Source of the DNA: a virus
Virus record (IMG/VR): IMGVR_UViG_3300014638_000001
Direction: 5' to 3' (one strand)
Length of the DNA stretch: 64,000 bases
Shown here: positions 619 through 63,985 of the stretch, one piece after another
Layout of the letters: every line of letters starts with the position of its first letter
Position numbering within the stretch: position 1 is the first letter of the stretch
Translations under genes and position numbers: made by a program
The notes under the pieces: model-generated
The model's input: only the letters and a program-made list of their open reading frames with translations
Told to the model about the DNA's origin: nothing
Database searches by the model: none

Positions 619-620
619 AT

Positions 621-1211: not shown

Positions 1212-1229
1212 CACTCCTATATAGGAGTG
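1212..1229. repeat. 18-bp palindrome CACTCCTATATAGGAGTG, copy 1 (perfect)
   Basis: Intergenic, between the ncRNA candidate and tRNA-Trp. Confidence 0.95.
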
Positions 1230-1234
1230 TTTGT

Positions 1235-1308
1235 GCCCCGGTTGCCGATGGTGAGGCGGAACGGCTCCAACCCGTTTCTTCGGCGTTCGAATCGTCGCTG
1301 GGGTGCCA
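1235..1308 (+). tRNA. tRNA-Trp(CCA)
   Basis: GCCCCGG/CTGGGGT, AACGG-CTCCAAC-CCGTT, GTTCGAATC, CCA. Confidence 0.88.
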
Positions 1309-1309
1309 T

Positions 1310-1387
1310 GCGTCGGTAGCTAAATTGGATTAAAGCTCTTGACTCTTAATCAAGTGATTGCGGGTTCGACTCCCGCCCGACGCACCA
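1310..1387 (+). tRNA. tRNA-Lys(CTT)
   Basis: GCGTCGG/CCGACGC, CTTGA-CTCTTAA-TCAAG, GGTTCGACTCC, CCA. Confidence 0.92.
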
Positions 1388-1394
1388 AAGTTTT

Positions 1395-1471
1395 CAGCGA
1401 GTAGGCAAGCCTGGAGAGCCGCCTGGCCTGGGACTAGGAAATCGTTGGTTCAAATCCAACCTCGCTGACCA
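1395..1471 (+). tRNA. tRNA-Pro(TGG) with C33
   Basis: CAGCGAG/CTCGCTG, CCTGG-CCTGGGA-CTAGG, GGTTCAAATCC, CCA. Confidence 0.88.
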
Positions 1472-1485
1472 GAATTGGAGGCAGC

Positions 1486-2043
1486 ATGACGCGAAGATGG
1501 TTCTTTGGGATGGCCGGTGGTGTTGGTGGCTGGTTCGGCATTAAGCCGGCTATGGCAAAACCTACGCCGCCGGCGATCAAGCAGAGCCCACGGGTTACTT
1601 ATTCTACATTAATCGGCGCTCCTGGATACGTTTTCGTAAGCCTGTATTTTGACGTCGAATGGAATGCAGAAATGAAGATGACAGTTGGGCGCCCCGGTTC
1701 CCATCCATTAACCACGAGTTGGATCACAGGTCCATATCCAGGGAACCCCAGTCGGCGTCGTTGGCTTGGATTCACGTCGATATCTGGGCTCGTAGCTCAC
1801 CCACCGTTACTGCTGACGCTGACGAGTGATCGGCCCTTTGTGGTCCACCAGGTGGTGCCGTCGTACCGGCTGCCAGCGGCTGACAGAATCTCGGAACTTC
1901 GCGAGGCGCGTCATGTTTTGGATGGTCTTACGGACAAGTCGCCGCGGCAACGCGCACTTGAGATTGAATCTGCATCGGCTCGCGAACAGATCCATGAAGC
2001 TCGCGTGCAGCGGTACAACGATGCCATGAAGGGTTTTGATTAA
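1486..2043 (+). CDS. hypothetical protein with twin-arginine (Tat)-like N-terminus, 185 aa
   Basis: GGAGG SD; N-terminus MTRRWFFGMAGGVGG...AMA. Confidence 0.65.
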   Translation: MTRRWFFGMAGGVGGWFGIKPAMAKPTPPAIKQSPRVTYSTLIGAPGYVFVSLYFDVEWNAEMKMTVGRPGSHPLTTSWITGPYPGNPSRRRWLGFTSISGLVAHPPLLLTLTSDRPFVVHQVVPSYRLPAADRISELREARHVLDGLTDKSPRQRALEIESASAREQIHEARVQRYNDAMKGFD

Positions 2044-2081
2044 GCCCGGCTCGTTTAGCGGCCAGGACCGGCGGTTTGTAA
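2044..2081 (+). pseudogene. 5' half of a tRNA (anticodon loop TTTGTAA, Thr-like), no 3' half
   Basis: GCCCGGC-TC-GTTTAGCGGCCAGGAC-C-GGCGG-TTTGTAA, then unrelated sequence ahead of the HNH gene. Confidence 0.5.
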
Positions 2082-2113
2082 CATAGATCAAGCCGTGTTA
2101 TAATTGACATGGT

Positions 2114-2578
2114 TTGGGGACTAAAACATGCAGTAAATGCAAGAGAGAATTGGAGAAGGAGGTATTCGCCCCGAGGGATGGTAATCCAAACAAGCTAGCG
2201 TCATGGTGCCGAGAATGCACTCGTTCTTGGGCGAATCTTCAATATTCAACAAATTCAAAACGTAGGCAGGCAATCGCTGATAATAGAAAGCTGTGTAAGT
2301 TACGGAATTACGCGCTCTTGTCCACGTTGAAGGATTTCCCGTGCATCGATTGCAAGAACCGTTTCCCGGCCTGCTGTATGGATTTTGACCACATCAGAGG
2401 CAAAAAGTTGCATAATGTGGCTTGGTTGGTCAATGTTTCAGAGCGTAGACTTCTTGAAGAGATCGCGAAGTGTGACCTAGTCTGTGCCAATTGTCATAGA
2501 ATCAGGACGGCCAGGCGAGGCGGATGGTTTAAAATGAATGCCGAGATAGCACAAGTTGGCGGTGCGCCGGTTCTGTAA
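2114..2578 (+). CDS. HNH endonuclease (free-standing, in tRNA array)
   Basis: CSKC..CREC zinc knuckle; CIDC..DFDH..CDLVCANCHRIRT HNH motif; TTG start. Confidence 0.85.
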   Translation: MGTKTCSKCKRELEKEVFAPRDGNPNKLASWCRECTRSWANLQYSTNSKRRQAIADNRKLCKLRNYALLSTLKDFPCIDCKNRFPACCMDFDHIRGKKLHNVAWLVNVSERRLLEEIAKCDLVCANCHRIRTARRGGWFKMNAEIAQVGGAPVL

Positions 2579-2616
2579 ACCGGAGGTTGCGAGATCGTGG
2601 CTCGCTCTCGGCTCCA
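2540..2616 (+). tRNA. tRNA-Thr(TGT), C33, aberrant T-loop ATCGTGG
   Basis: GCCGAGA/TCTCGGC, CCGGT-TCTGTAA-ACCGG, T-stem GCGAG/CTCGC, CCA. Confidence 0.75.
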
Positions 2617-2617
2617 T

Positions 2618-2691
2618 GCCTCGGTAGCTCAGTGGCAGAGCAGTGGTTTCGTAAACCACCGACGAGAGTTCAATTCTCTCCCTTGGCTCCA
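2618..2691 (+). tRNA. tRNA-Thr(CGT)
   Basis: AGCTCAGTGGCAGAGC D-arm, GTGGT-TTCGTAA-ACCAC, GAGTTCAATTCTC, CCA; two acceptor-stem mismatches. Confidence 0.82.
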
Positions 2692-2699
2692 GAGTTTAC

Positions 2700-2774
2700 G
2701 CGGTGGTGGCCGAGAGGCAAGGTACCTCACTGTCTATGAGGACAACGCGGGTTCGAATCCCGTCCATCGCGCCA
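2700..2774 (+). tRNA. tRNA-Asp(GTC)
   Basis: GCGGTGG/CCATCGC, CCTCA-CTGTCTA-TGAGG, GGTTCGAATCC, CCA. Confidence 0.9.
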
Positions 2775-2775
2775 A

Positions 2776-2849
2776 GCGGGTGTGGCTCATTGGTTGAGTT
2801 CCAGCCTTCCAAGCTGGCCAAGAGAGTTCGATTCTCTCCACTCGCTCCA
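2776..2849 (+). tRNA. tRNA-Gly(TCC)
   Basis: GCGGGTG/CACTCGC, CCAGC-CTTCCAA-GCTGG, U73, CCA. Confidence 0.92.
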
Positions 2850-2854
2850 AAGTT

Positions 2855-3115
2855 ATGAAGACGATCGAGGTGCTGATTCCTGGTAAGTGCTCGATGATCC
2901 GCGGCGCTCTCGCCACGTGTGCGATCGAGGGGAACCAGTTCGCGATCGATGCGATCGAGACCATCCGGCGTGTGGATATCGGCGAGCCGGTTGGGGCGCG
3001 GTACGCGAAGCAGTTGAATGAGTTTTTGAGCGGGCGTAATTCAGCGGCAGAATGTCTGACTGCCAGTCAGAACGTCGCGGGTTCGAGTCCCGCCGCCCGC
3101 ACCAAGCCCTTGTAG
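2855..3115 (+). CDS. possible small hypothetical protein whose 3' end overlaps tRNA-Gly(GCC)
   Basis: Fills the 180-nt gap between tRNAs with phage-like codons; weak SD. Confidence 0.35.
   Translation: MKTIEVLIPGKCSMIRGALATCAIEGNQFAIDAIETIRRVDIGEPVGARYAKQLNEFLSGRNSAAECLTASQNVAGSSPAARTKPL
3030..3104 (+). tRNA. tRNA-Gly(GCC), A73 discriminator
   Basis: GCGGGCG/CGCCCGC, TCTGA-CTGCCAG-TCAGA, GGTTCGAGTCC, ACCA. Confidence 0.92.
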
Positions 3116-3179
3116 CTCGACGGTCGAGCATTCGGCCTTTAACCGAATGGACTGGGTCCGATTCCCAGCGAGGGCACCA
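3106..3179 (+). tRNA. tRNA-Lys(TTT), C33, T-loop TCCGATT
   Basis: GCCCTTG/CGAGGGC, TTCGG-CCTTTAA-CCGAA, CCA. Confidence 0.85.
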
Positions 3180-3186
3180 AAGATTG

Positions 3187-3445
3187 GATGTAGTTGGTCA
3201 TAGGGCAAGGCTCCTTCAGGGCGGCTGGCCGCCAAGCAAGCGCTATGGCCGTAAAACCCCAAGGGAGACCGAAAGCCCGAAAGGGCATGGAGAATGCCGG
3301 TGAGGACGAAAGAAAACCATGCAGGGTTTGTCCAAGAGGCCGAGCTAGATCCCCCGGAACGGCATGGCGGGCCGGGAACGACACAGGACGGTGAAGCACG
3401 TCCGTCCGAAAGATGACCGCGGGGTTACGAGGTAGCTTCTACATG
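3187..3445 (+). ncRNA. candidate ~260-nt structured ncRNA, family unassigned
   Basis: Ends pair (ATGTAG 3188-3193 / CTACAT 3439-3444); helices GGTCATAG/CTATGGCC, GCCC-GAAA-GGGC, GGCAT/ATGCC, GGAC/GTCC, CCCGG/CCGGG, GGACG/CGTCC. Confidence 0.5.
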
Positions 3446-3447
3446 AT

Positions 3448-3524
3448 GCCGGGCAACCACGCTGGTCGCGTGGACTGGTCCTACAAACCAGCACAGTGGA
3501 GTTCGATTCTCCGGCCCGGTACCA
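3448..3524 (+). tRNA. tRNA-Val(TAC), A8 and C33
   Basis: GCCGGGC/GCCCGGT, CTGGT-CCTACAA-ACCAG, GGAGTTCGATTCTCC, CCA. Confidence 0.82.
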
Positions 3525-3525
3525 C

Positions 3526-3600
3526 CCTCGAGAGGCTCTCCGGACGAGCAGTCGGCCGATAACCGACAGGGAGATGGTTCGATTCCATCCTCGAGGACCA
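3526..3600 (+). tRNA. tRNA-Ile(GAT), A8 and C33
   Basis: CCTCGAG/CTCGAGG, GTCGG-CCGATAA-CCGAC, GATGGTTCGATTCCATC, CCA. Confidence 0.85.
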
Positions 3601-3646
3601 AGTTCTATGACTAAAAGACTGGCAACAGATCAAGATTATATGATCC

Positions 3647-3725
3647 GCTGGCGTAGCTCAAGACCGGCCAGAGCACATGGCTTATAACCGTGAGGTTCTT
3701 GGTTCAAATCCAAGCGCCAGCACCA
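3647..3725 (+). tRNA. tRNA-Ile(TAT)
   Basis: GCTGGCG/CGCCAGC, CATGG-CTTATAA-CCGTG, GGTTCAAATCC, CCA. Confidence 0.88.
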
Positions 3726-3759
3726 GGTTCCGATGTTAGAATACTGAGGAGGAATTTTC

Positions 3760-4140
3760 ATGACGCAGATAGAAGCCGACAATTACAACATCACGCTGCC
3801 CATCACGACAGCCGCGGAAGCGAATGCCTGTTTCATGCAACCCGCACAATTGCAAGACGTTGACGCGAGTGGCAAGACCACGATTTACTTACGGCCGTAC
3901 GAATGTGCGACCAAATCCGGCGCACAGATGCTCGCGACCGCTGTTGGTGGGTCAATCAACGGCCAATTGATCCCCAGCCTGAAGGTCTCGCCGACGATCT
4001 ACACGGTCATCTGGCCAGACAATAGCAGCTCGCTTGCCGGTTGGTATATCTACAACTGGCTGATTCTGCATGGCTGGAACTGGAGTGGCGGAATTGATGT
4101 TGGATCGCCGCTGGCCTGGACCGCGCCGGCAGCGAAGTAA
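3760..4140 (+). CDS. hypothetical protein, 126 aa
   Basis: GAGGAGG SD, ATG, fills gap between tRNAs. Confidence 0.7.
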   Translation: MTQIEADNYNITLPITTAAEANACFMQPAQLQDVDASGKTTIYLRPYECATKSGAQMLATAVGGSINGQLIPSLKVSPTIYTVIWPDNSSSLAGWYIYNWLILHGWNWSGGIDVGSPLAWTAPAAK

Positions 4141-4145
4141 GCTAT

Positions 4146-4219
4146 TCCGGGATAGCTCAGTGGCAGAGCTCAGTTTTGGTAAAGCTGCGACTCGGGTTCG
4201 ATTCCCGGTCCTGGATCCA
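4146..4219 (+). tRNA. tRNA-Thr(GGT)
   Basis: TCCGGGA/TCCTGGA, CAGTT-TTGGTAA-AGCTG, GGTTCGATTCC, CCA. Confidence 0.85.
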
Positions 4220-4225
4220 GATTAT

Positions 4226-4380
4226 GCCGCCGTAGCTCAGTGGTGGATGTGCGGCTTCGAAGCGTTGTCCGGACCGCGCTTCGGGGTGCATCACATCTCC
4301 CATGTGGGGTGACCTGCATGGCTTTGAGAGCACCGACTGTGGAAGCCGGAGCATGGATGGTTCGAATCCTCCCGGCGGCT
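4226..4380 (+). tRNA. His(GTG)-like tRNA with 82-nt structured insertion in the D-loop (4245-4326); irregular anticodon stem, no encoded CCA
   Basis: GCCGCCG/CGGCGGC acceptor; removing 4245-4326 restores GCTCAGTGGTAGAGC; CTGTGGA loop; GGTTCGAATCC. Confidence 0.6.
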
Positions 4381-4390
4381 TTACCCACAT

Positions 4391-4466
4391 TCCGGGGTAG
4401 CCGACGTGGTCAAGGCACTGGCCTGAAACGCCAGCAATAGTCGTTCGATTCGACTCCCCGGAACCA
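4391..4466 (+). tRNA. tRNA-Phe(GAA)
   Basis: TCCGGGG/CCCCGGA, CTGGC-CTGAAAC-GCCAG, GTTCGATTC, CCA. Confidence 0.88.
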
Positions 4467-5634: not shown

Positions 5635-6434
5635 CCAGGGCTAAACTGATTCAGATCGCTAGGTTCACTTTGCGTGCACACGCCGGCGATCCGCTGGAGC
5701 AGGTTGCGACCGCGCTTGCCGACGGCATTGAGCTCTTTCTGAAGATGGAAGCAGAAATTGGCGAAGAGACTCCAGAACGTTTGCCGGATCCAATTGGAGA
5801 CGTGTTTGACACCAAGGCCGCCGACTTTAAGACCAGCCGGCTACCGGCATCGCCTGCCATCCAGAAGGCGCCGCCGGAAGCTCCCCGCGAGCCACAGCGT
5901 CTCGTTGTCATGCCGGATTCTCCGGAAGCGCGAGAAGCATTGCTGGCGCCGCGGCCCGATCCCGGCGCACCACCGCCATTGCGCCCACCGGAGACTCCAG
6001 CGAAGCTGACCGTTTTGCCGTCTACCGAGCCACTCGCGCAGGCGCCAGGTGAGAAGATTTATTGGCGTGTCGAGAAGATTTCCGAGATTCTTCACGCTCA
6101 GACGCCGCCAAAGATCAAGATCGTCGTCGAACATCCCGAGCGTGGGGAGATCCCGATCATGCTCGAACGGAACGTGGTGATCGGTGCCGGCTTCGATAGC
6201 GTTAAACTCTCCTACAAACCTGTTTGGGCAACTGATGACATGAGCGTGCAAGCCACGTTCTCGACCACTCAGAAGGAACTGCCGATCGGTGAGGAGGTTG
6301 AGAAATTGCAGGCTAACGCCATCAAACTCTATTCCCCACGGCCGCGCACGCTTCGGTCGACCACGCCGCCAAATTACGATCAGAGCTCTTATGGTGCCCT
6401 GCTGCGCATCGGCATTGACGCCGGGACTGTCTAA
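5631..6434 (+). CDS. hypothetical protein with Pro-rich linker
   Basis: ATG at 5631 overlaps upstream TGA. Confidence 0.75.
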   Translation: MTRAKLIQIARFTLRAHAGDPLEQVATALADGIELFLKMEAEIGEETPERLPDPIGDVFDTKAADFKTSRLPASPAIQKAPPEAPREPQRLVVMPDSPEAREALLAPRPDPGAPPPLRPPETPAKLTVLPSTEPLAQAPGEKIYWRVEKISEILHAQTPPKIKIVVEHPERGEIPIMLERNVVIGAGFDSVKLSYKPVWATDDMSVQATFSTTQKELPIGEEVEKLQANAIKLYSPRPRTLRSTTPPNYDQSSYGALLRIGIDAGTV

Positions 6435-6646
6435 TGCCAGTAATCCGCGTAATTATATCGAACGGTGAAATTTACGATCTTGCTGTACCGTCAATACCTT
6501 ACGACTACAGAGTCCCAGTTTTCAAGGCACCCGACTGGAAGCAGATTTTCAGTGGAGAGACCCCAGAGAAGCCAACGGTCGAAACCGAAATCCTAAAGTA
6601 CGACTGCGAACTCAGCCTGAGCGCTGGAATCCCTACCTACCTCTAA
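6434..6646 (+). CDS. hypothetical protein, 70 aa
   Basis: TAATG translational coupling. Confidence 0.65.
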   Translation: MPVIRVIISNGEIYDLAVPSIPYDYRVPVFKAPDWKQIFSGETPEKPTVETEILKYDCELSLSAGIPTYL

Positions 6647-6650: not shown

Positions 6651-6668
6651 CACTCCTATATAGGAGTG
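6651..6668. repeat. 18-bp palindrome, copy 2 (perfect)
   Basis: CACTCCTATATAGGAGTG, intergenic, upstream of the packaging genes. Confidence 0.95.
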
Positions 6669-7272: not shown

Positions 7273-7709
7273 TGCCGGGGACAAAGCGCAAACGGGTGAG
7301 GAAGAGTCTCATCGAGAAACTCCCGGAGAGAATCCGAGAATCCGCGGTGATGCGTCGGCAGTCCATCCGCCCGAGCAGTATGACGAAGTACCAGCAGCAG
7401 ATGCTGTTGCTGTTCATGCCGGAAATCTCCCGGTGGTTTTTCGCTCGGCTCATGGACGGTGTCAAACGCGGGAACAAGACAGATCAGGCATTGTGGGCTG
7501 AAATGGCTGGGCATATCCAGCGCAAGAACGGCATCAACATCAACCAGCAGATCCTGAGCCAGCAGAACGTGAACGCGACGGCGCCGCGGTATTCGATGGA
7601 CCAGATTGTTCGAGAGCTCCAGGAACAAACCGAAATGAAGACGATCGACACGACGCTCGCAATCGAGCCAGGAGGCAGCGATGTTAACAACGTCGCGGTG
7701 GAAGCGTGA
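7272..7709 (+). CDS. putative terminase small subunit (positional), 145 aa
   Basis: ATG coupled to upstream TGA; basic N-terminus; overlaps the TerL start. Confidence 0.45.
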   Translation: MPGTKRKRVRKSLIEKLPERIRESAVMRRQSIRPSSMTKYQQQMLLLFMPEISRWFFARLMDGVKRGNKTDQALWAEMAGHIQRKNGININQQILSQQNVNATAPRYSMDQIVRELQEQTEMKTIDTTLAIEPGGSDVNNVAVEA

Positions 7710-10700
7710 CGTCGGCGTCGATGAACTCGTCGAGCATTTCGATCAGGAGAAGTACCTCGCCGACTGCAGTGTTCTAACGGTCGTGGAGATCCGTCAGCTC
7801 GCTGCCGAGATCAAGCGGTGTCAGGAAAGCTTCGAATACGCCGCGAGAAATTATTTTAAGATCATCAACAAGCAGCGGGAAGATCAGTATCTGACCTTGA
7901 ACGAGGGCCAGGACGTACTGCTGGAGAAAATCTACCGGCTGCGGGATCGCGGTAAACCACAGAAACTACAGATCATCAAAGCACGCCAGCTCGGAGCCAT
8001 GCATCCCACGACCAACGTGTTGACGGCAGAGCTCAATTGGGTACGAATCGATTCTCTCCGGCCAGGCCAGAAAATCATTGGCGTCGACGAGTTCCCGGCT
8101 GGCGGCCGTGGTGTTGGTAGAAAATTCCGTACTGCTGTTGTTCTCAAAAAGTGGACTGTCCAGAAGGAGGCATTTCGGATCACGATGGGAAACGGTGCCA
8201 TCTTGACGGCCACGGGAGATCACCCCTTCTTATGCAAGAAACGCGGCAATGTCCAGACCGAATGGCGATTGACCGCCGAGCATCCAAAAGGCAAGAAATC
8301 CTCATCGCCAATTCGGGTTGGTGATGAGATTAGGTGCGTAATTCCGCCATGGTATCGCGAGCAGGCTTTTGAGTTTGATGACGGATGGTTTGCTGGATTG
8401 ATGGACGGCGAAGGATCCTTGCGGGCGAAGAAAAACGGCGGCATTGAGGCGACGGTATCCCAGGTAGCTGGGCCGGTTCTTAACCGCGCGGCTCGCTACC
8501 TAGACTCGCACGGGTACCCATTCGCTGTTGATGTCGACAAACGAAAGAAGGCGGATAGTACGAAACTTGGCGATCAGCCGGTATACAAGCTTGTGCTGAA
8601 CAGTATCCCGCAGGTATTAAGACTTCTTGGGAACACCAGGCCAACGCGATTTGAGGGAAGGGATATATGGGAGGGAAAAGACTTACCTAACAACGGCGTA
8701 GGCCAATCATGGCAAAAAGTAGTCTCCATTGAATCGATTGGCGAGCAGGAGATGGTGGACATTGAAACCAGCACGGGAACGTTCATCGCGGAAGGCTTTA
8801 TCACCCACAACTGTTCGACATTGATCGAGGCGCTGATCGCCTGGCGCACGATGTTTTTCCCGAATGTAGCCGCGATGGTGGTCTCGCACGTCGGCACGCA
8901 CGCCAGCTTCCTGTTCCAGAAGATGGTCCACATCTACGACCAATTGCCATGGTGGATGAAGCCGATGCTCGCCTCGCGTAAGGAAGAGGAGGGGCTTGTT
9001 TTTAAGAATCCTGAGCCGGAATTACGTCGCGTGGATCCAGGGTTAAATTCCAGTGTGATTGTCCAGGCAGCCACACAGGTCTCGGGCGTTGGTGAGGGCT
9101 ACACCATCAATGCGATGCACTTCTCCGAGTACTGCAGCGTCGACGATTCCAAGGCGCGCGAAATCATTGAGGGTGACATGGTGCACGCGCTGGCGCCCAA
9201 TGTGGGTACTTTCGCGATCTTGGAATCCACAGCGAAGGGTGCTGGCCGGTTTTCTGAGGATTTATGGGTTGCGAATGTGGATCTAGCTGAAAAGGCTGAC
9301 TGGTATACAGTCTTCTTGCCATGGTTTTTTGAAAAACAGCGCGTAGTGGCTCCGGAAGATGGCTGGCGCCCAAGCGAGCCCGAACTCGCGATGCGTTTGC
9401 GTGTCGAGAAAGAGTGGGTGCAGTGCACTCATTGTGGCGAGTTCCGCGAACGTTACTTCAAAACGTTTGACATCAAAGGCAGTGAATGCACGGACTGCCA
9501 CAAGGGTACTCGAGAACCGTATCTCCTCAGCGATCCGCAGCTCGCCTGGATGCAGGAGCGCGTGCTCAATGCGCGCCGGCGCGGTCCGGAATCACTGAAA
9601 GAATTGCGCCAGGAATTGTGCACGACGGCCGAAGAGGCGTTTCAAATTTCTGGCATCGCTGTCTTCCCCGAGGATACGCAGGAGTTTGTGAACGAGACGA
9701 TTTGCCCGGCGGTTTGGACCGGAAACCTCGATCGCAAAGGCAAGTTTCACTGCTCGATTCGGGAAGTCGATGAGAACGGCAAAGAACACTTCAAGTGTTT
9801 CCAGGAATGGTGCACGGTGGATCATCGCTGGGATCTGGAAAGTCCCCTACAGATCTGGGAACTTCCGGAACCAGGCGCGCGGTACTGCATTGGTGTGGAT
9901 ATCGCCGAAGGGTTGGCAACCGAGAAATCGGACTACTCAGTATGCTGGGTAAATAAGATCGGTGATGCGCCGTCGCCAGACACACACGTTGCGACTTATC
10001 GATCGAATTCAATCAATCCGTCTGACCTAGCCGCCGTCTGCAACTTCCTTGGCCGTTGGTACAACGAAGCACAACTCTCGATTGAGTACAACGTCTATCA
10101 GACGACCGGCGACAACGTCAAGAATTTCTATCAGTACCCAAATCTATTCCGGTGGAAGCACTACGACTCCGTGACCGGGATGAACTCGAACAAGCTGCAC
10201 TGGCTCACACAACAGAATTCGAAACCGCAGCTATGGCAGACCGGCGTTCGCGCGCTTCGCGAGCGTTCGTGGTTCATCCACGACAAGATGTTCGCGCACG
10301 AGATGAAACGATTCCAGAAAGAGGAATACGACTCAAAGAAAGCGGAAGCCGAGACGAACTTTCATGACGATGTCATCATGGCTGCGCTGATCGCGCGCTA
10401 CACCAGTCACGATCTTGATTCCTACGACGAGAACGCCTATGCGGCCGCGGATGCTGGGCCGGCATTTGTCCAGATGCTCGAGTGGACGATGGATTGCCTG
10501 ACCTGCAAATTCACATGGCAAGCTAACAATCCAGAAGAGTACAGGCGTTGCCCATCACCGAAATGCAATTCGCCGATGTTGCATGGCAAGCCGAACACCA
10601 AAGAGGGACCCACTAAGCTGGGGGGAAAGTACGTTTTCCAGCAGATCGAAGAAGAAGTCAATGAGCTCGATACCCTGCCGGAAGACGGCACGTTAGAAAG

Positions 10701-15362: not shown

Positions 15363-15380
15363 CACTCCTATATAGGAGTA
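15363..15380. repeat. 18-bp palindrome, copy 3 (17/18); its AGGAG is the SD of the scaffold gene
   Basis: CACTCCTATATAGGAGTa. Confidence 0.92.
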
Positions 15381-21215: not shown

Positions 21216-24200
21216 ATGAGCTTGCCTCCTATCACAACCGTACACGCGACAGCGTTCGAGCAGTGGGATTATGACACGCCGAACACGACCGGCATAGGAG
21301 GTTCCGAGACAAGCCAAATCGAGTTGAGTTGGAGGCTCGCACGCCGTGGATACGACGTGATGACCTACGCCCCGGTGCCCTGGGAAGGCGTACGTGAATG
21401 GCGCGGATCGAAGTGGGCGCCGCTCACAGCGGTCGATTGGAAGCGGCCCGGCATCTGGCTGATTTACCGCCAGCCGTCAGCGCTCGACAACTTCCCAGAC
21501 AACCATCCCGACCAGCGGCTCTACCTGGTCAGTCAGGATGTCACCTATCCCGACTGGACGAAGGAGCGCATGACGAAACTCGATCGCTTCATGGCGCTTT
21601 GCCAGACCCATGCGCAAGACCACCGCACGCGCTGGCCGGGCTTCGATGAGAAGATCTTTGTTTCCGCCAACGGTATCAAGCGCGACCTCATCGAACAGAT
21701 TGAAAAAGAAGGGATAAAACGCAATCCTCGGAAAATGATTTATGCGTCGTCGCCGGACCGCGGCTTGGTCTGCTTACTCAAAGTCTTCAAGCGGGCGCAG
21801 GAATGGGTGAAGAATCTCGAGCTCCACGTCTTCTACGGTTTCGACAACATCGACAAGCTCATCGCCTCGAACCAAAACAACAAAGATTACGCAAAATTGA
21901 AGGCCGAAGTCACAAAACTCTGCCAGATGCCGGGCGTGATCTGGCGCGGCCGCATCAACCAGCCGGACCTGATCCGGGAATGGTTCAGCGCCGGCATCTG
22001 GTGCCACCCTTCGGTCTTCACCGAAACCGGCTGCATCACCTCGATGGAGGCGCAGGCGTGTGGCGCTATCCCGATCACGACGCCGATCTGGGCGGTGGCC
22101 GAGAACGTCAAGCACGGCATGTTTATCCAGGGGAACCCGTACATCGATCCGATCGTCCAGGCGCGCTTTGTGAGCGCCATCTACCGGCTGGTCGCCGATG
22201 AGAAACTCCAAGCGGACATTCGGGCCGAGATGATCCCCGAAGCACGCTTCCGCTTTGATTGGGAAAAGGTGGTCGACGGTCTAGAACGCGAATTCCACTC
22301 CCATATAGGAGTGATTTCGCCGAAGCCGATCGTCAAGAACGCTCCGAACCGGTTCATTTTGTACTCGCCGATTTCGCTCAGTCAATGGGATTGGAACAAC
22401 ACGGAGAGCGGCATCGGCGGCTGTGAGACCTCGGTTGCGGAAATGGCTTGGCGGCTGCAGCGCGCTGGCAGCGAAGTGATCGTCTACGCCCCCGTCCCGT
22501 TTGACGGCGAGCGGGAGTGGCGCGGAACTAAGTGGCGCCCGGTGGACAAGGCCGATTTCTCGATCCCTGGCACCTGGTGCATCTACCGCGTCCCGCAGAT
22601 GCTGCATAAGTTCGACCGGAACCGTGATGACCAGGTGATCTGGCTCATGATGCAGGATTGGGATTACGACTGGAAGGGTTTTGATCGCATGGATCGGGTG
22701 GTGACGTTATGCCACACGCACGAGAAATGGCTGCTGGAGCGGCATCCGGAGCTCAAACCGAAACTCCACGTCACCTCGAACGGTATCAAGGTGGACTTGA
22801 TCGAGGAGATCGAGAGAACCAACGAACTCCCACCACGCAATCCGCGGAAAATGATTTATGCGTCGTCGCCGGACCGCGGGCTGAAGCGGCTACTTGAGAT
22901 CTTTGCTAAGGCCCAAGCTCAACAGGACCCGGCGCAACCGCTCGAACTTCACGTGTTTTACGGATTCGATGGTCTCGAACAGCTTGTCGCCCGGAATCCG
23001 GATTCGGCGCCGCTGCTCAAAGACCGGGAAGAAATCCAGAAGCTGGCGGGGACGATCCCTGGCGTGCATCTACGTGGTCGTGTTTCACAGACCGAACTCT
23101 ATCGCGAATGGTTTTCAGCCGGCATCTGGTGCTATCCGACCGATTTCGCTGAGATGAGTTGCATCACCTGCCAGGAAGCGCAGGCGATGGGGGCGATCCC
23201 GGTGACCTGCGAAGCATGGGCACAGGGTGAGAACACGTTATTCGGCATCACTATCACCGGAGACCCGGCGATTCCGGGGGTTCAGGACGAATTTGTCAAG
23301 CAGCTTGTGTCAATCGCGAACGATATCCCGCGGCAAGAACGCATCCGGGCGGAAATGATGCCAGCCATCCGCCAGCGCTTCGACTGGAATCGCCACGTGT
23401 CGCAGTGGGAAGACTGGACAGAAGAAGACCGTGTCGTGCATGAAACCCAGATCTGCCGTGGCTGCGGCGAAGACAAGCTCGAGACTGTACTCGATTTGGG
23501 CGAACAGGCGATCGCCGGCTACTTCCCGGAGCCCGGCGAGAAAGTGCTTCTGGCGCCACTCGAGCTGGTGCGCTGCACCGCCTGCGATCTCGGCCAATTG
23601 CGGCATTCGGTGGATCGCCGGGCGCTATTCGCCGGCGCCTACGGCTACCGCTCTGGAATCAACGAAACCATGCGCGGGCACCTGAAGGGAATCGCCAAGG
23701 AATTCAAGGTGAAGAGCGGCGATCTGGTGGTGGACATCGGCTGCAACGATGGAACGTTTCTGGAGAACTTCCCGGTGCGCTCGCGCGTTGGTTATGATCC
23801 ATCGGAGATCTGCCCATCCAAATACCATCGGGACTTCTTCAGCCAGGAGCACTTCGAGAAACATCACCCCGGCAAGAAGGCGAAGGTGGTGACTTCGCTG
23901 GCGATGTTTTACGACCTCGAGGATCCGCTCGAATTCGCCAAGCAGGTGCACGGCATCCTAGCCGATGACGGGATCTGGGTGATCGAGGTTCAGGATTTCG
24001 CCGAGACTGCCAAGAAATCGGCCTTCGACACAATCTGCCATGAGCATCTGACCTATTGGGACGCCACTAGGCTGGAAGAAGTCCTCGTGCGCTCTGGCTT
24101 CGTTTCCGTCAAAGTCGACTACAACTCTATTAATGGTGGCAGTATGCGGGTACACGCGATGAAGGTTGTCGTCCGTGAATCAGGACCAAAACCGTATCCA

Positions 24201-27366: not shown

Positions 27367-27384
27367 CACTCCTATATAGGAGTG
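27367..27384. repeat. 18-bp palindrome, copy 5 (perfect)
   Basis: Intergenic. Confidence 0.95.
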
Positions 27385-36851: not shown

Positions 36852-39131
36852 ATGGCACTCCTCTATCGCACACTTCGCTCGAGCCTCAAGCCGATCCTCG
36901 GCCTCAATGACATCAGTGCCCCTTCTGCGCAGAATCTGCAAGCTGGGTACCTGCTCAACGAAGCAGGCGGCGCGGTCCTCCATGATGTGCGTGGCGTCAC
37001 GCCGGCGCAGCTCTCCGGAACTTACAACTGGCTACAAGGTCCAAGCGGGCCGGTAGTCAACTTCAACGGTGGGCTCGCCACTGGCCCATCTGCCGCACTT
37101 GACCCGTTCACAATCGGGTTCTGGCTGAAGTTGAGCACAGTGGCGCCGTCCAACCAGGACCCAATTTGTAAGTGCGATTCCTCTATCGGCCATGGTTGGA
37201 TTATCCAGGTTGAATCGAGCGGTGGTGGAAATATCCGGTTTGATGCCGCATTCACCGGAGCGAATAACTTTCAGCTTCAAATGGCGGTCCCAGACACGAC
37301 ACACTGGCATTTCTACGTCTTTTACTGGGACAAAACCGGAGCCCACACCGGCGGCAACAGCAACGATGCGCACTCAGGCATCTATCTTGATGGCAAGCCT
37401 GCATTCATCAATACGGCGATCAGTGGCAGTGGCAGCCGCGTCTCCGATTCCGGCCAGCCCTTGACATTTGGTGCATTTACAGGCGGGATTTCCCCGCTGA
37501 GCAACGGGCAAATTGGATCCGTGTTCTTTTGGAATCGCATCGTTTCAGAGGCGGAAATTCAGGATCTTTACACTAAGACCTACCCCGCCATTAGGCCCTT
37601 GCATGTTTACCCAGCGCCACCGCCAATCCCCTCGCAGGACTATATCTTCTACGATTCCTTCGATTACCACCTCAAACAACAGCTAGCCCAGAAGTCATTC
37701 AATAGAAATGTCGAAACAGAAGGTTTCTGGGGGGAAGTGGTGCCAACCGGGGTTCCGACGTTCGGTTATGCTTTCGACGACCGCACCGATTACCGACAGG
37801 CTCCACTGCGCGCCGCTCACTTCCCGCGCGACCAGGTTGCTTTCCTTGACTTCGCGCCAGTAACGCCCGTGGTGCCATCCCAGGATTACATCTTCTATGA
37901 TTCGTTCGACTATCGCGCGGCCGCCAGCCGGATTCAGCAGGCACATTTCGATCGAAACGCGGTTTTGAGCAACTTTCAAGCAACGGTTCCACCGTCATTC
38001 GGCTGGAATTTCTATGACTCCTTCGATTACAAGGCACGGCAGAATCGCTTGGCGCACTTTCCGCGCGACTACGTGGCTGATGCCGGCATCATCTTTGCGG
38101 CAACCGGCGCGGCCGCGGCACCCAGCATCGGCTACCTGTTCTACGATTCCTTCGACTACAACAAAGCCAAGCGGTTGAATCTGCAGTTCCCGCGGAATTA
38201 TGTGGACAACACAGCGGCGCTATTCACGCCGGTTGGGTTGAGCGTTCCCTCGCAGGACTACATCTTCTACGACTCGAACGACTACGTAGGGCACGCGCGC
38301 CAGGCCGCGCAGCATGCGTTTCGACGGGACTACGTCGCCGAGCCACCGTGGAGTGCTCTTATCACACCGGCCTTTGTGGACCCGGCCGGCTGGTATCCCA
38401 TCGTCACGCCGATCTCTGTCCCGGTACGCCAGCGACAAAGTTACTTCTATATAGGAGTGCCGAATGATCTCCGCGATGGCACCCTGTTGCCGGCCTGGAA
38501 TTTCCTGCAAATCGGAGATTCGTCGCAAGAGCCATTGCGCCAGCGGGAATTGTTTCGACGCCTGCAACAGAATGTCGACCCAGTGAAGCCACCAAAGACC
38601 TTCCTGAGCGTCTTTTTCAGCGCCACCTGGGCACCATGGAACGCCAATCTGAGCAAGGCCGCAACCCGTAATTTCGTGGCGAGGATGCAAGCCTGGGCGG
38701 CGAGTCTCTCGATATTGTCACCGCACCCGCCGGCAATCGTCGGCTTCATGCTCAACGTGTGCTCGGAGTCGCGTCTGCTCGCAGCCATAAAGTACACCAT
38801 AGCAACAGTTTGCCAAGATCCAAGGACGGTCACCGTGCCTCTCAATACAACGCCAGTTTGCATGACATTCGTGAAAGACCCACAAGCCACCACCGACTAT
38901 TCGATCGACTGGACGATGCCGCTCACCGCCGCCTCGGACACGATTAAGACCTCTTCCTGGGCTACCGATCCAGGGGTCGCGGTGGCGAAATCAACTTACG
39001 TCGGCTATGTGGTCACCGCGTTCATCTCGGGTGGCACGGTGGGCTCCAGCTACTCGGTCACAAACACGATCACCACTCCCGGCGGGCGCACGCTGGCACA
39101 GAACTTTATCGTCAAAGTGCAATTGCTATAG
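36852..39131 (+). CDS. tail fibre/receptor-binding protein: LamG-like lectin domain, six aromatic repeats, C-terminal fibre-adaptor domain
   Basis: FTIGFWLK..WHFYVFYW..YLDG..GQIGSVFFWNRIVSEAEIQDLY; KDPQATTDYSIDW. Confidence 0.8.
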   Translation: MALLYRTLRSSLKPILGLNDISAPSAQNLQAGYLLNEAGGAVLHDVRGVTPAQLSGTYNWLQGPSGPVVNFNGGLATGPSAALDPFTIGFWLKLSTVAPSNQDPICKCDSSIGHGWIIQVESSGGGNIRFDAAFTGANNFQLQMAVPDTTHWHFYVFYWDKTGAHTGGNSNDAHSGIYLDGKPAFINTAISGSGSRVSDSGQPLTFGAFTGGISPLSNGQIGSVFFWNRIVSEAEIQDLYTKTYPAIRPLHVYPAPPPIPSQDYIFYDSFDYHLKQQLAQKSFNRNVETEGFWGEVVPTGVPTFGYAFDDRTDYRQAPLRAAHFPRDQVAFLDFAPVTPVVPSQDYIFYDSFDYRAAASRIQQAHFDRNAVLSNFQATVPPSFGWNFYDSFDYKARQNRLAHFPRDYVADAGIIFAATGAAAAPSIGYLFYDSFDYNKAKRLNLQFPRNYVDNTAALFTPVGLSVPSQDYIFYDSNDYVGHARQAAQHAFRRDYVAEPPWSALITPAFVDPAGWYPIVTPISVPVRQRQSYFYIGVPNDLRDGTLLPAWNFLQIGDSSQEPLRQRELFRRLQQNVDPVKPPKTFLSVFFSATWAPWNANLSKAATRNFVARMQAWAASLSILSPHPPAIVGFMLNVCSESRLLAAIKYTIATVCQDPRTVTVPLNTTPVCMTFVKDPQATTDYSIDWTMPLTAASDTIKTSSWATDPGVAVAKSTYVGYVVTAFISGGTVGSSYSVTNTITTPGGRTLAQNFIVKVQLL
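37630..38340 (+). repeat. six ~45-aa repeats P(S/T)(QD/xG)YxFYDSFDY...HFxR(N/D)YV
   Basis: Seen directly in the translation; CCxTCxCAGGAxTAxATCTTCTAxGA recurs at ~37630, ~37876, ~38247. Confidence 0.8.
38442..38459. repeat. 18-bp palindrome, copy 6 (16/18), intragenic (YFYIGV)
   Basis: tACTtCTATATAGGAGTG. Confidence 0.8.
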
Positions 39132-44589: not shown

Positions 44590-44607
44590 CACTCCTATAT
44601 AGGAGTG
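44590..44607. repeat. 18-bp palindrome, copy 7 (perfect), between convergent genes
   Basis: CACTCCTATATAGGAGTG. Confidence 0.95.
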
Positions 44608-46466: not shown

Positions 46467-46469
46467 AGC

Positions 46470-47756: not shown

Positions 47757-47757
47757 G

Positions 47758-50993: not shown

Positions 50994-51614
50994 ATGAGCG
51001 CTGTCGCTGAACCGATTCACTCCTATATAGGAGTGAATCTGCCGGTTGTCCGTGAAGACAAGAACCAGGTTTACTTTCTTGACAGGCTGATCGTGGCGCC
51101 GAATCCAAGCGAGCAAATGCTGGCCTACGCTTATCTGGAATTCGAGCGGCAGGGCTTGAACAAGTACATCTGGTACGAAGGGGTTCCGTCGCTTTCCTGG
51201 TATCTTGCCGAGTTCAAAAAGATGGTGGTGCTCGGCTGCTATGAGGATGTCGACGGCATCGCGCAGATCCGCGGGCTCGGCTGGGTGAACACTCTGACGC
51301 TCATGGGCGGCAAATTCAAGAAGGCTGAAGTTGGGATGGCCTTTTTCAAGGAGGTCCCACACGGCCACACGCATTCGTTTGGTTTGATGATGGTCGACCA
51401 CGCGATCACGCACGTGGGGCTCGATGCGATGTTCGGCGCAACCCCGGTGAAGAATCCGGCCGCGATCCGCTACATGCAGAAGCTCGGCTTTAGCCACTGC
51501 GGCCCGGTGGAGAACTACTGTTCCTTCAATGGCGAGTTGTGCGCGTGTGAAATCAGTTGGATGACCCGTGAAAAATGGGAGCAGATCCGCCCGTTCCGGG
51601 TCGAGAAGGAGTAA
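50994..51614 (+). CDS. GNAT-family acetyltransferase-like virion morphogenesis protein
   Basis: KAEVGMAFF..MFGATPVKNPAAIRYMQKLGF; typical position before ejection genes in podophages. Confidence 0.78.
   Translation: MSAVAEPIHSYIGVNLPVVREDKNQVYFLDRLIVAPNPSEQMLAYAYLEFERQGLNKYIWYEGVPSLSWYLAEFKKMVVLGCYEDVDGIAQIRGLGWVNTLTLMGGKFKKAEVGMAFFKEVPHGHTHSFGLMMVDHAITHVGLDAMFGATPVKNPAAIRYMQKLGFSHCGPVENYCSFNGELCACEISWMTREKWEQIRPFRVEKE
51014..51039. repeat. 18-bp palindrome, copy 8 (perfect at 51018-51035, extended to a 26-bp palindrome), intragenic (HSYIGV)
   Basis: GATTCACTCCTATATAGGAGTGAATC. Confidence 0.95.
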
Positions 51615-60265: not shown

Positions 60266-60283
60266 TACTCCTATATAGGAGTG
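60266..60283. repeat. 18-bp palindrome, copy 9 (17/18), intergenic
   Basis: tACTCCTATATAGGAGTG. Confidence 0.92.
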
Positions 60284-61656: not shown

Positions 61657-61758
61657 TCACCAGTTTTGAGGCCAGTGGGGGCAGGGTGTTATCCAGACCA
61701 GAACCACAGCAGCTACGCCGGGCCTGATCTGGATAATCAGGAGGGCAACGAGTTGCAT
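61657..61758 (-). CDS. 33-aa hydrophobic peptide MQLVALLIIQIRPGVAAVVLVWITPCPHWPQNW
   Basis: GGAG SD 8 nt upstream; stop lies in a GGCC..GGCC-TTTTT terminator hairpin. Confidence 0.55.
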   Translation of the reverse strand: MQLVALLIIQIRPGVAAVVLVWITPCPHWPQNW

Positions 61759-61820
61759 CGTTGCTTCTCCATTCTCCGAGGGTATATTTCAGGGCTGCAA
61801 CCCTGAGTCACCTCGGGAAT

Positions 61821-61914
61821 TGGTGCGGTGGGGGTGGGAGTTGCACCCACAAATCCCCCCTTAGGAGATTACGGTTTAAAAGACCGTTCGGCTAGCTGAT
61901 TGCCATCCCCACCG
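61821..61914 (-). tRNA. class II (long variable arm) tRNA-like gene with UUU anticodon and extended acceptor stem
   Basis: CGGTGGGG/CCCCACCG; D-stem GGC/GCC lacking GG; ACGGT-CTTTTAA-ACCGT; 7-bp V-arm; GTGGG-TGCAACT-CCCAC; ends GCACCA. Confidence 0.75.
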
Positions 61915-61968
61915 TTGCTCTAAAGATTCTCACAAAAAACGCTAAACACGGCAATACCGCTCCCTGGG

Positions 61969-62415
61969 TCAGCTTTTTTTGCGCTCGTGCTTCCTGTGTT
62001 CAGCCCATTGCTGAATGAATACCTTGTGGTCCGGGGTGACGCATGTGCCCTTGTAGTCGTTATCAAACGCGGAAGGCATGGCCGCCCGAAGAGATGCCGT
62101 AAGATTGGGTGCCGGTTCTGTTCTGAGCAAGACCAGATTTTCTAAGGCTTCCGCCTCAGCTTGGCCGAGAGAGTCGAGCCATCGTTTCATCTTTACTTTG
62201 TAGCGTTTGCGCTTCCACCAACCCATACACCAGGCTGTGATTCTCCCTGTAAGGTCAACGAAAATAAGGAATAGAACCAGCACCTCGATGACGAGCATCC
62301 ATTCATCGACTGGTCTGGTATCAGGGCCTAGTATGTGCCGCAGGGTGTCCAGCATAATCAGCAAGACAACCAGCAGTCTAGCAAGGCTAGGCCATTTTGG
62401 GGCAGACCAACGCAT
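61969..62415 (-). CDS. membrane protein (two TM) inside the cassette; start uncertain (first ATG lies in the TIR)
   Basis: LLVVLLIMLDTL..WMLVIEVLVLFLIFVDLTG. Confidence 0.6.
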   Translation of the reverse strand: MRWSAPKWPSLARLLVVLLIMLDTLRHILGPDTRPVDEWMLVIEVLVLFLIFVDLTGRITAWCMGWWKRKRYKVKMKRWLDSLGQAEAEALENLVLLRTEPAPNLTASLRAAMPSAFDNDYKGTCVTPDHKVFIQQWAEHRKHERKKS

Positions 62416-62441
62416 CAGTAGCCACTACCACGTGCCGCACG

Positions 62442-62606
62442 TCAAATTCGGTTCTCACCAAACTTCCGCTTGAGTTTATCCTCAGCCGCGCGCATCATTC
62501 GCTCACGGCGCTCTCTCTGGTTAAGCCGCTTGGCAACACGAGCTTGCTGGCGAGTCATGTAGCCTTCCACTTCAGCGTGCACCTTGTCTCGCCGCTTTTT
62601 ACGCAT
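62442..62606 (-). CDS. small basic protein, 54 aa (MRKKRRDKVHAEVEGYMTRQQ...)
   Basis: Overlaps the hydrolase stop; not in the ORF track. Confidence 0.55.
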   Translation of the reverse strand: MRKKRRDKVHAEVEGYMTRQQARVAKRLNQRERRERMMRAAEDKLKRKFGENRI

Positions 62607-63009
62607 GGTAGAAACGGACACCGTCGAGCTGCACCGTCATCTTGTCTACAGCGAACCAGGGATCTCGAGCACGCACTGCGTCGAGCTGATCGAGCGGTTC
62701 GGATTCCCAATAGACAGCGCCGCCCGTGGTATCGGTTGTGACCTGTGCCGGGATCTGTTCGATCTCCTGCCAGGCAGCCCAGTCTTCTGGAATCCCGTCA
62801 TTAGCGAACACGGCATCGGTGCTCCCTGGATTGAACGAGGAGACCTGTTCCGGTTGGAGAATGCAGCGCACTAGCGTGGGGCGAAAAGGAGCCATCCCAA
62901 CCCGGTTGTGCAGCGCCCACCAAATGCCGATACGCGCGGCCTGGGATTGGCCGCGAGCTTCCCGGAAGATTGCAATCAAACACAGCCACACTTCGTAAGT
63001 GAAAGTCAT
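62599..63009 (-). CDS. SleB/Hydrolase_2-type cell wall hydrolase (endolysin candidate)
   Basis: CLIAIFREARGQ..HNRV..QVSSFN..TTGGAVYW..GVRFYH. Confidence 0.85.
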   Translation of the reverse strand: MTFTYEVWLCLIAIFREARGQSQAARIGIWWALHNRVGMAPFRPTLVRCILQPEQVSSFNPGSTDAVFANDGIPEDWAAWQEIEQIPAQVTTDTTGGAVYWESEPLDQLDAVRARDPWFAVDKMTVQLDGVRFYHA

Positions 63010-63417
63010 TTATTGGTCCTCCAAAACAATTCTGGTTTCCCATTCGTCCACGGTGAGCATTGCGGGATAGATAGTAATCGTGTGGTTGCAACTCGAGATA
63101 CTGTCGTTTTCCAACACGCCATAGCGCACGAGTAAGTCCAAGACCGTTGAGACGATATTGTCGCGGTCGACGTTGACGCGCGCGACTTTAAAATAGAACT
63201 CTATTTTCGGGTGCCTCAGCTTCAAATCGCGCATGTCGCCGGGGATCTGAAGGCCAGCCCGATCCATGGCATCCTTCACCGCAGATTTGGTGCGGATGCC
63301 CATGTACGTGGAACCAGCGACGCCTTTCTTGGTGTCTTTCTTCCGCTTGCGTAGTGTCGCCACTTTCTCATTTTTGTGGCTTGGCAGTTCGCCGAAAAGT
63401 GTGAGTTCGTATTTCAT
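63010..63417 (-). CDS. RusA-like Holliday junction resolvase
   Basis: LPSHKN..DRDNIVSTVLDLLV..GVLENDS. Confidence 0.75.
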   Translation of the reverse strand: MKYELTLFGELPSHKNEKVATLRKRKKDTKKGVAGSTYMGIRTKSAVKDAMDRAGLQIPGDMRDLKLRHPKIEFYFKVARVNVDRDNIVSTVLDLLVRYGVLENDSISSCNHTITIYPAMLTVDEWETRIVLEDQ

Positions 63418-63626
63418 TTGGTTGACCTGTATGGGATCACTCGAAGAGGCCCAGCACCATCAAAAATGCTACGGCATGTGAAGCATATGTGCAGCAAAGG
63501 CTGGGCACCCGGCCCCTGCACTGGCCCCTTCTCGAAATCTTGCGCGAAATACGTATCTGGGCCAAGGTTGTAGGTCATCGATCCGCACTTGGCGCATGGG
63601 AAGTACTCCTGCAGCACGTACTTCAT
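63414..63626 (-). CDS. small zinc-finger protein, 70 aa
   Basis: CAKCGS..HICFTC; ATGA overlap. Confidence 0.6.
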   Translation of the reverse strand: MKYVLQEYFPCAKCGSMTYNLGPDTYFAQDFEKGPVQGPGAQPLLHICFTCRSIFDGAGPLRVIPYRSTK

Positions 63627-63985
63627 AGCCGGTTTTCGCGATGACGTTTGCGGTGGCAAGCCCCGCAAAGTCCATCGAGGTTGCCCCGATCACGGCGGCC
63701 GCGCGCCCGCGGGATCCGGTGATGACGCTCCATTTGGGCGCGTGCCACCGTGCGCCCGCAATCCAGGCAGCGGCCACCCTGCTCGGCGTAAACTTTGTCC
63801 CCCTCAATGTCGTAGAGCTTCTCGATCAACATCTTCAAAGCCACCTTCTCGCCTTCTGCGCTTTCGGTTTTGGCAAGCACCTTCCCTTCGTCATCGTAGG
63901 CGGCGAATTCAGCGACTTTCACTCCTATATGGGAGAGCCGGTTGATCGTGTATCCGCAGATCTTCTCAGCTTGAGCTATCGTCAT
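63623..63985 (-). CDS. small HNH endonuclease
   Basis: GGRCLDCG..MERHHRIPRARG..NLDGLCGACHRKRH. Confidence 0.85.
   Translation of the reverse strand: MTIAQAEKICGYTINRLSHIGVKVAEFAAYDDEGKVLAKTESAEGEKVALKMLIEKLYDIEGDKVYAEQGGRCLDCGRTVARAQMERHHRIPRARGRRDRGNLDGLCGACHRKRHRENRL
63920..63937. repeat. 18-bp palindrome, copy 10 (16/18), intragenic on the minus strand (LSHIGV)
   Basis: CACTCCTATATgGGAGaG. Confidence 0.8.

Follow-up and report, generated by a model that had tools for sequence, protein, structure and literature searches.

The ~101-kb genome of an uncultured peatland phage, represented here by a stretch of 64,000 nucleotides from IMG/VR virus record IMGVR_UViG_3300014638_000001 (hereafter the window), carries a dispersed 18-bp palindrome, CACTCCTATATAGGAGTG. 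Its copies are real, show selection acting on the DNA itself, cluster in intergenic DNA and differ in a concerted way from one related phage lineage to another. They are probably DNA sites for a putative phage-encoded protein that reads them as a dimer. On the basis of sequence comparisons we favour, with a probability of roughly one half, the more specific reading that they are operators for a lineage-specific dimeric phage DNA-binding protein controlling transcription genome-wide.

Copy number and sequence of the palindrome

A search of the window allowing up to three mismatches recovered 10 copies of the palindrome (five perfect, three with one mismatch and two with two mismatches), reproducing every position and mismatch count given in a preliminary description of this DNA. 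Only 0.01 copies are expected by chance, and shuffled sequences never gave more than one. The family is sharply bounded in the window: no sequence lies at three or four mismatches, the next-best matches lie at five to six, and no isolated half-sites were seen there. The copies are spaced more evenly than random (coefficient of variation (CV) 0.33, P about 7e-4).

The 38 kb beyond the window was rebuilt from contigs of the same phage, giving a composite genome of 102,690 bp. A scan of this composite (~102.7 kb) added eight copies, for a total of 18 at up to three mismatches and none at four, with a genome-wide spacing CV of 0.40 (P about 2e-5 to 5e-5). Variation is confined largely to positions 1/18 (C to T) and 7/12 (T to C), while the ACTCC-N-ATAT-N-GGAGT core is almost invariant; the cores of the two half-sites are separated by 11 bp centre to centre, or one helical turn. 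Site quality differs between genome regions: copies in the late (structural) region are near perfect, with a mean of 0.5 mismatches, whereas those in the early (replication) region average 2.0 (P = 0.003), every one of them being imperfect and a CCCATAT variant being common to them.

The exact 18-mer had no match in IMG/VR. It matched 15 sequences in metagenomes, which comprise three fragments of the same phage and unrelated chance hairpins, and two of 185,579 species genomes, which is the chance level, one of the two being an adapter artefact. The motif is therefore not a host-wide repeat, an origin that the preliminary description had kept in view. Two loci of similar G+C content with one perfect copy each (L011 and L012) were considered as relatives and rejected, being unrelated by blastn and tblastx.

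Lineage-specific palindromes in related phages

Relatives were found through the portal and capsid proteins, and eight related genomes were examined in full. The exact motif is absent from relatives found in this way, but all eight genomes contain a dispersed palindrome of their own, 14-18 bp long and present in 8-18 copies each, as do about 40 of 80 related loci of 5-21 kb. The version is ATGTCCAGATCTGGACAT in G1 (57% portal identity), TGTCCGCC-N-GGCGGACA in G2 (45%) and TGTAAACC-N-GGTTTACA in G3 and G4 (33%). Among genomes compared by capsid, G006 (60% identity) has GTCCCACGTGGGAC, G007 (50%) has the core TCCAGTACTGGA with the full form (A)GTCCAGTACTGGAC(T), and G008 (69%) has GTCCGGATTCGGAC; other loci (42-60% capsid identity) show the centres AACGTT, AAATTT, ATATAT and others, and the dyad motif GTSCAACGTTGSAC is the version of two capsid-related loci of this phage family. 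The majority of versions fit (G/C)TCC-N6-GGA(C/G), in which the centre is lineage-specific (TATATA, AGATCT, CACGTG, AACGTT, AGTACT, AAATTT or ATATAT). The centre is itself palindromic in seven of the nine lineages having a fixed 4-nt core. Such palindromic centres favour a protein dimer on DNA, which needs symmetry, over an RNA hairpin loop, which does not.

Several sites lie at orthologous positions, each in the version of its own lineage. The 5' end of a GNAT-like gene carries a site both here (51018) and in G1, both this phage (15363) and G008 have one at the c18|c19 junction ahead of a scaffold-like gene, the junction between the zinc-ribbon and portal genes has one in G1, G2, G006 and G007, and a site lies upstream of a 1267-aa gene in G006, G007 and G008. 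The ortholog in G2 of the 375-aa gene associated with copy 27367 is followed by a site, and the sister genomes G3 and G4 have most site positions in common. Concerted change of sites at orthologous junctions points to a trans-acting reader with co-evolving specificity. Positional conservation in relatives, on which the preliminary description had made its proposal depend, thus fails for the exact sequence, while palindromes of the relatives' own occupy some of the same gene junctions.

Placement relative to genes and transcription signals

Coding sequence makes up ~85% of the genome, yet 14 of the 18 copies are intergenic (P about 1e-7); in nine of these 14 the preceding gene has its stop codon 1-4 nt ahead of the copy or uses the TAG of the motif centre as its stop. 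The gap from a copy to the next start codon ranges from 4 to more than 100 nt. The preliminary description had pointed out that the AGGAG arm could mask a Shine-Dalgarno (SD) sequence; the arm stands at SD distance from a start codon (4-10 nt) in copy 15363 and in four or five copies outside the window. A role of the arm as an SD holds for a minority of copies. Positions of the window copies are listed in Table 1 together with those of candidate binding proteins.

Table 1. Palindrome copies in the window and genes of candidate binding proteins
Feature	Position	Strand	Description
Palindrome copy	1212..1229		Perfect; between ~500-nt non-coding stretch (or 67-aa open reading frame (ORF)) and tRNA-Trp; followed by TTTGTG
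Palindrome copy	6651..6668		Perfect; 4 nt past stop of gene 6434-6646; next gene 121 nt on
Palindrome copy	15363..15380		One mismatch; 1 nt past stop of 14972-15361; AGGAG arm 6 nt ahead of ATG 15385
Palindrome copy	22296..22313		One mismatch; within 1130-aa glycosyl/methyltransferase gene, residues 361-366, read HSHIGV
Palindrome copy	27367..27384		Perfect; 1 nt past stop of very basic 41-aa ORF; ATG 27396 11 nt on
Palindrome copy	38442..38459		Two mismatches; in 759-aa tail-fibre-like gene between Laminin_G_3 and Gp77 domains, read YFYIGV
Palindrome copy	44590..44607		Perfect; convergent junction, 4 nt from stop on either side; followed by TTTTTT
Palindrome copy	51018..51035		Perfect; codons 8-13 of GNAT-like gene (ATG 50997)
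Palindrome copy	60266..60283		One mismatch; 3 nt past stop of 931-aa gene; followed by SD and ATG 60299
Palindrome copy	63920..63937		Two mismatches; codons 17-22 of minus-strand HNH gene, read LSHIGV
Candidate RHH-like protein, 104 aa	4821..5135	minus	Orthologs in G1 and G008 only
Candidate HTH-like protein, 115 aa	4477..4824	plus	Weak sigma-70 region 4 / HTH_23 match; ortholog in G1 only
Candidate zinc-ribbon protein (weak), 133 aa	11045..11446	plus	In all TCC-N6-GGA lineages; not detected in G3/G4

The four copies inside genes are all read in one frame (..IGV), as initially reported. Such agreement would still arise by chance about one time in eight, because one of the two alternative frames of the motif contains TAG. 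The rare codons that these copies were said to force are indeed found in all of them: ATA accounts for 4% of isoleucine codons and GGA for 13% of glycine codons. Copies 22296 and 38442 lie mid-gene at domain junctions, the former between two glycosyltransferase domains; copies 51018 and 63920 lie 21-48 nt into their genes.

A predicted leaderless promoter at 50964 would put copy 51018 at about +22 to +39 of the transcript. In this genome, ctgTTGAC(A/C)GAAAT boxes occur 30-50 nt ahead of gene starts at 21186, 34945, 39134 and 50964 (plus strand) and at 50914 (minus strand), the last two forming a divergent pair; each is followed by a -10-like element spaced so that the ATG is at or beside the predicted transcript start. 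In G008 (12100-12240, L141/L140), a TTGACT/CATTAT promoter beside the ortholog of the RHH-like gene has its 17-bp spacer occupied by a site. About 50 nt downstream, a strong hairpin and then a T-run lie next to the RHH ortholog, an arrangement that may represent a short regulatory transcript.

The site family does not have the make-up of an intrinsic terminator, namely a GC-rich hairpin with a sense-strand U-run: a T-run on the sense strand follows only two or three of the 18 copies, six having one on the antisense strand instead, and the AAAAAC in front of copy 6651 gives it the look of a minus-strand terminator. Strong canonical terminators are present at other places in the genome, so the motif is not the general terminator. 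The two convergent-junction copies followed by a T-run may double as terminator stems. A T7-type promoter, suggested by the resemblance of the motif to ACTC..TATAGGGAG, was rejected in view of the palindromic form of the site, the failure of Pfam scans (scope given below) to find a single-subunit RNA polymerase, and the GC-rich centres of the relatives, which are unsuitable as a melting region.

Candidate binding proteins

Searches for the reader with Pfam and PHROGs returned three proteins only: a 48-aa HTH_17 protein, whose gene lies about 2.7 kb upstream of the window, one with a weak helix-turn-helix (HTH) match and one that is ribbon-helix-helix (RHH)-like; Atlas searches gave nothing decisive. 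The RHH-like protein has weak Atlas leads to RHH families, and its orthologs differ at alternate positions of the predicted DNA-reading strand. The gene of the candidate zinc-ribbon protein is directly adjoined by a site in four relatives; an AlphaFold model of this protein (predicted local distance difference test score 54) was not used. Between the zinc-ribbon gene and the portal gene lies a 235-aa ORF (11489-12196) with weak HNH and zinc-finger matches. An HNH gene thus occupies here the junction at which G1 and G2 carry their own palindrome.

Genome context

The window encodes a large terminase with an intein, a portal protein, a capsid protein, tail-fibre adaptor domains of the podophage GP4 gp77 type, internal-virion-like giant proteins and 16 tRNA genes. 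No cultured phage is close, the best capsid identity being about 27%. Look-ups of exact proteins retrieved contigs of this phage that are circularly permuted, 100.4-103.4 kb long and without host flanks, and the phage is indexed in about 100 blocks of the metagenome collection; of the runs listed, most are from peat and wetland. The phage looks virulent, because its contigs of ~100-103 kb are circularly permuted, two relatives have terminal repeats, and neither an integrase nor a host flank was found. Pfam scans of ~95 window proteins and ORFs, together with precomputed Pfam hits of the flanking 38 kb, detected no ParA, ParB, SMC-like, MatP-like or integrase protein, although a very divergent ParB could escape such scans, and no RAYT/Y1 transposase or single-subunit RNA polymerase. 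The phage does encode RecT, an exonuclease and several HNH genes.

The large terminase (7681-10722) has 1013 aa here, but a 741-aa version is present in other strains of this phage; the HNH-containing intein therefore varies between strains. Immediately upstream of window position 1, a 495-aa protein (L030:8458-9945) is conserved across the phage family. It was considered as a DNA binder and rejected, since Atlas features and structure identify it as a Ro60/TROVE-like protein with a vWA domain. Its gene is followed by a conserved 101-aa coiled-coil protein (101-406), the tRNA array (466-4466) and a non-coding stretch of ~500 nt (704-1210), which together look like a phage Ro60/Y-RNA-like module. 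Farther upstream, ~8.4 kb from the window, a 75-aa gene (L030:1392-1619) has an Acb2/Tad1-hairpin Pfam match (anti-CBASS/Thoeris sponge family); it lies on the strand opposite to its neighbours and near palindrome copy 93232 of the composite genome. The very basic 41-aa ORF ahead of copy 27367 (27243-27365) terminates in KKKR.

Copies 44590 and 51018 form the left and right borders of an inverted, minus-strand module (44612-50869, also in L006) encoding glycine-rich, internally repetitive tail-fibre-like proteins, including the products of two ~425-aa genes that are about 75% identical to each other. The module is the most strain-variable part of the genome (96.5% identity in one stretch).

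Proposed mode of action and alternative explanations

According to the operator model, a putative phage-encoded sequence-specific protein would bind each site as a symmetric dimer or dimer of dimers, with a specificity that would differ from one lineage of this phage family to the next. At gene and operon junctions the bound protein would obstruct or modulate RNA polymerase: behind an upstream gene it would act as a roadblock or insulator, and close to some promoters it would act as an operator. The perfect late-region sites would be of high affinity, and the weaker early-region variants would allow graded, time-dependent control. The split in site quality between early and late regions, together with the tracking of junctions and start regions, fits regulation better than segregation. 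The comparative data strengthen the view of the preliminary description that the palindrome is a DNA-level site for a dimeric phage-encoded protein rather than a simple single operator.

Several observations weigh against transcriptional control. The even spacing of sites here and in G008 is not predicted by regulation. Flanks of the 18 copies are not conserved apart from a downstream A and upstream A-runs, and most sites thus appear to have no fixed relation to a promoter; two copies are mid-gene and remote from any start. The base directly after the site is A in 13 of the 18 copies in the sense direction (P about 1e-5), and an A-run lies just upstream of six, an asymmetry that a symmetric dimer alone does not explain. 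A -10-like hexamer lies 31-39 nt from four sites against 0.43 expected, which would favour such control, but this spacing window was picked after viewing the data and shows no enrichment in relatives; an activator at about -55, which rests on these hexamers enriched in this genome only, was accordingly set aside and kept merely as a hint. Two metatranscriptome runs yielded just a handful of contigs from this stretch, each shorter than 200 nt; only two of these fell within the capsid gene and none at a site. No RNA runs were listed for a 6-kb query. Finally, none of the proteins returned by Pfam and PHROGs was detected in all lineages.

The flank asymmetry is shared evidence for a different explanation, in which the site acts after transcription as a 7-bp hairpin (predicted free energy -8.9 kcal/mol) controlling translation by SD masking or stop-codon coupling, mRNA processing or stability, or termination. 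The copies within 4 nt of an upstream stop, the AGGAG arms close to start codons and the T-runs at the two convergent junctions also agree with an RNA element. We nevertheless regard it as unlikely. The would-be loop is self-complementary in seven of nine lineages, which is not required of RNA; substitutions read in the mRNA sense do not favour G-U over C-A, four of the five at positions 7/12 giving C-A; TCC and GGA at fixed positions throughout the family look like base-specific recognition; stronger canonical terminators are found elsewhere in the genome; and several copies are mid-gene or have no downstream gene within reach. Anchoring of the chromosome for condensation, segregation, ejection or packaging by a parS/matS/KorB-like system, largely independent of transcription, is a somewhat less probable alternative. 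It draws on the far more even than random spacing of sites (P about 5e-5 here and about 0.0015 in G008), on the retention of in-gene copies despite their rare-codon cost, on the presence of sites in every module and in both transcription orientations, and on the precedent of KorB, a single palindrome-binding protein that is both organiser and regulator. Even spacing is significant in only two of six genomes, however, being absent from G1, G3, G4 and G006, and 30 kb of structural genes in G1 are free of any site. No ParA, ParB, SMC-like or MatP-like family was found in the Pfam data, a phage that looks virulent would have no need of segregation, and neither the early/late difference in quality nor the clustering at stop and start codons is predicted by an organiser. 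The parS/matS-like role put forward in the preliminary description is thus not supported.

The least probable account makes the palindromes recombination joints or REP/RAYT-like selfish repeats, that is, homology or target sites for module exchange with no regulatory role. The inverted module is bracketed by two perfect copies here, whereas G1 has a single site between the orthologs of the flanking genes; a strain indel of 334 bp, which deletes a 128-aa gene, has its end 9 bp from one copy; the mid-gene copies are at domain junctions; lineage-specific sequences recall REP-RAYT pairs; and the phage has the RecT, exonuclease and HNH genes mentioned above. Yet no Y1/RAYT transposase or recombinase was found in the scans described above, and the copies are accompanied by neither target duplications nor flanks in common. 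In a second strain deletion, a copy is lost from the interior and does not mark the edge. The 120-aa HNH gene (63623-63985) exists as two alleles of ~75% nucleotide identity among strains that are otherwise 99-100% identical, and copy 63920 is present in only one of them, the other having a look-alike with six mismatches at the same place; this copy was thus probably created where it now lies, through point changes to an allele that already resembled the site in part. In addition, sequence change in step across lineages at orthologous junctions needs a trans-acting reader. Such a reader is also part of the proposal that a lineage-specific protein uses the sites to mark the DNA of its own phage, for instance for replication initiation, for protection against a phage nuclease or for packaging choice in mixed infection. 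The centre diversifies rapidly among lineages, many of them from peat and wetland metagenomes, while the TCC/GGA frame is kept, a pattern seen in incompatibility or immunity specificities, and the sites are spread across the whole genome. Support for self-recognition is indirect, no origin-like clustering of sites was seen, and both the junction clustering and the early/late quality difference would be left unexplained; we consider it improbable, if less so than recombination joints.

Comparison with known systems

The closest published parallel is the repeat of Cluster O mycobacteriophages, a 17-bp dyad (TGTTCGG-N3-CCGAACA) with 34 copies in Corndog, described in five closely related genomes that share one motif (Cresawn et al. 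2015, PMC4351075). According to the available text of that study, neither the function of the repeat nor its binding protein was known (PMC4351075). As far as that text describes them, both systems consist of a short palindrome dispersed in a phage that lacks integrase and parAB and shows no obvious sign of being temperate, with many copies intergenic, some near gene 5' ends and some mid-gene, in orientations independent of transcription. The palindrome described here shows the traits of this class: a dyad within 14-20 bp, at least 10 copies, placement mostly at gene boundaries and no detected integrase or parAB. It differs in that phage family, host and sequence are unrelated, copies are fewer (18 per 101 kb) and, relative to what the available text reports for Cluster O, related lineages carry retuned versions, sometimes at the same junctions.

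Cluster A stoperators, the sites of the L5 gp71 repressor, occur in tens of copies in short intergenic gaps, where one phage protein stops transcription, and related Cluster A phages have site versions matching their repressors. Stoperators measure 13 bp, lack symmetry, point in the direction of transcription and are found in temperate phages whose repressor is known; a contrast with them is drawn in PMC4351075. The palindrome resembles them in its many intergenic copies (14 of 18) and in the versions that differ among related phages. In contrast to stoperators, it is symmetric, only the A that follows it being oriented, and its phage looks virulent, with no repressor recognised among its proteins. 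In the Streptomyces phage phiC31, the conserved inverted repeats (CIRs) bound by the c repressor are palindromes of roughly 17 bp in well over a dozen copies, many of them intergenic. These too are dispersed palindromes with many copies between genes; phiC31, however, is temperate with an identified repressor, of which no homolog was found here. We favour a genome-wide transcription regulator like those of the stoperators or the phiC31 CIRs, given that the sites are perfect in late genes and weaker in early ones, that one lies at about +22 of a predicted promoter and that one in G008 lies within a promoter spacer.

The KorB-OB system of plasmid RK2, ParB-parS and the dispersed centromeres of N15 rely on palindromes of ~13-16 bp in about a dozen dispersed copies that are recognised by a dimeric protein. 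KorB is at once an organiser and a long-range repressor, and systems of the KorB/ParB type depend on a ParB-family protein with a ParA partner. The short dispersed palindrome, with its 18 copies, is similar in form, but no ParBc match, ParA-type ATPase or integrase was found in the Pfam data. Unlike matS sites, which lie in a single macrodomain and are bound by MatP, an RHH and coiled-coil protein, the sites cover the whole genome, and the RHH-like protein has no family match to MatP. The palindrome also departs from REP/REPIN elements, which have a cognate RAYT (Y1 transposase) and are host-wide or purely extragenic: no Y1 transposase was found in the scans, the motif is not host-wide, and four copies lie inside genes.

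Significance

Dispersed palindromes were already known from Cluster O mycobacteriophages; the comparative series of lineage-specific versions is new here. It comes from a widespread, uncultured family of phages with genomes of ~95-110 kb, in which the outer frame of the site is conserved and the centre is rewritten in each lineage. This natural series of matched site variants makes the reader findable by covariation or simple binding assays. It also offers a way to test for stoperator-like global control, or for a self-recognition code, in virulent phages. Should the reader be identified, the family would provide a set of orthogonal protein-DNA pairs. We hold it to be unlikely, though worth stating, that the palindromes and their reader constitute a rapidly diversifying genome 'barcode' across a family of abundant soil and peat phages, in which a conserved scaffold would read the TCC/GGA frame and the central 6-bp specificity would be retuned in each lineage. 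If that were so, a phage could discriminate between its own DNA and that of relatives infecting the same cell, so as to control expression, replication or packaging, which would amount to an incompatibility- or immunity-like system in virulent phages.

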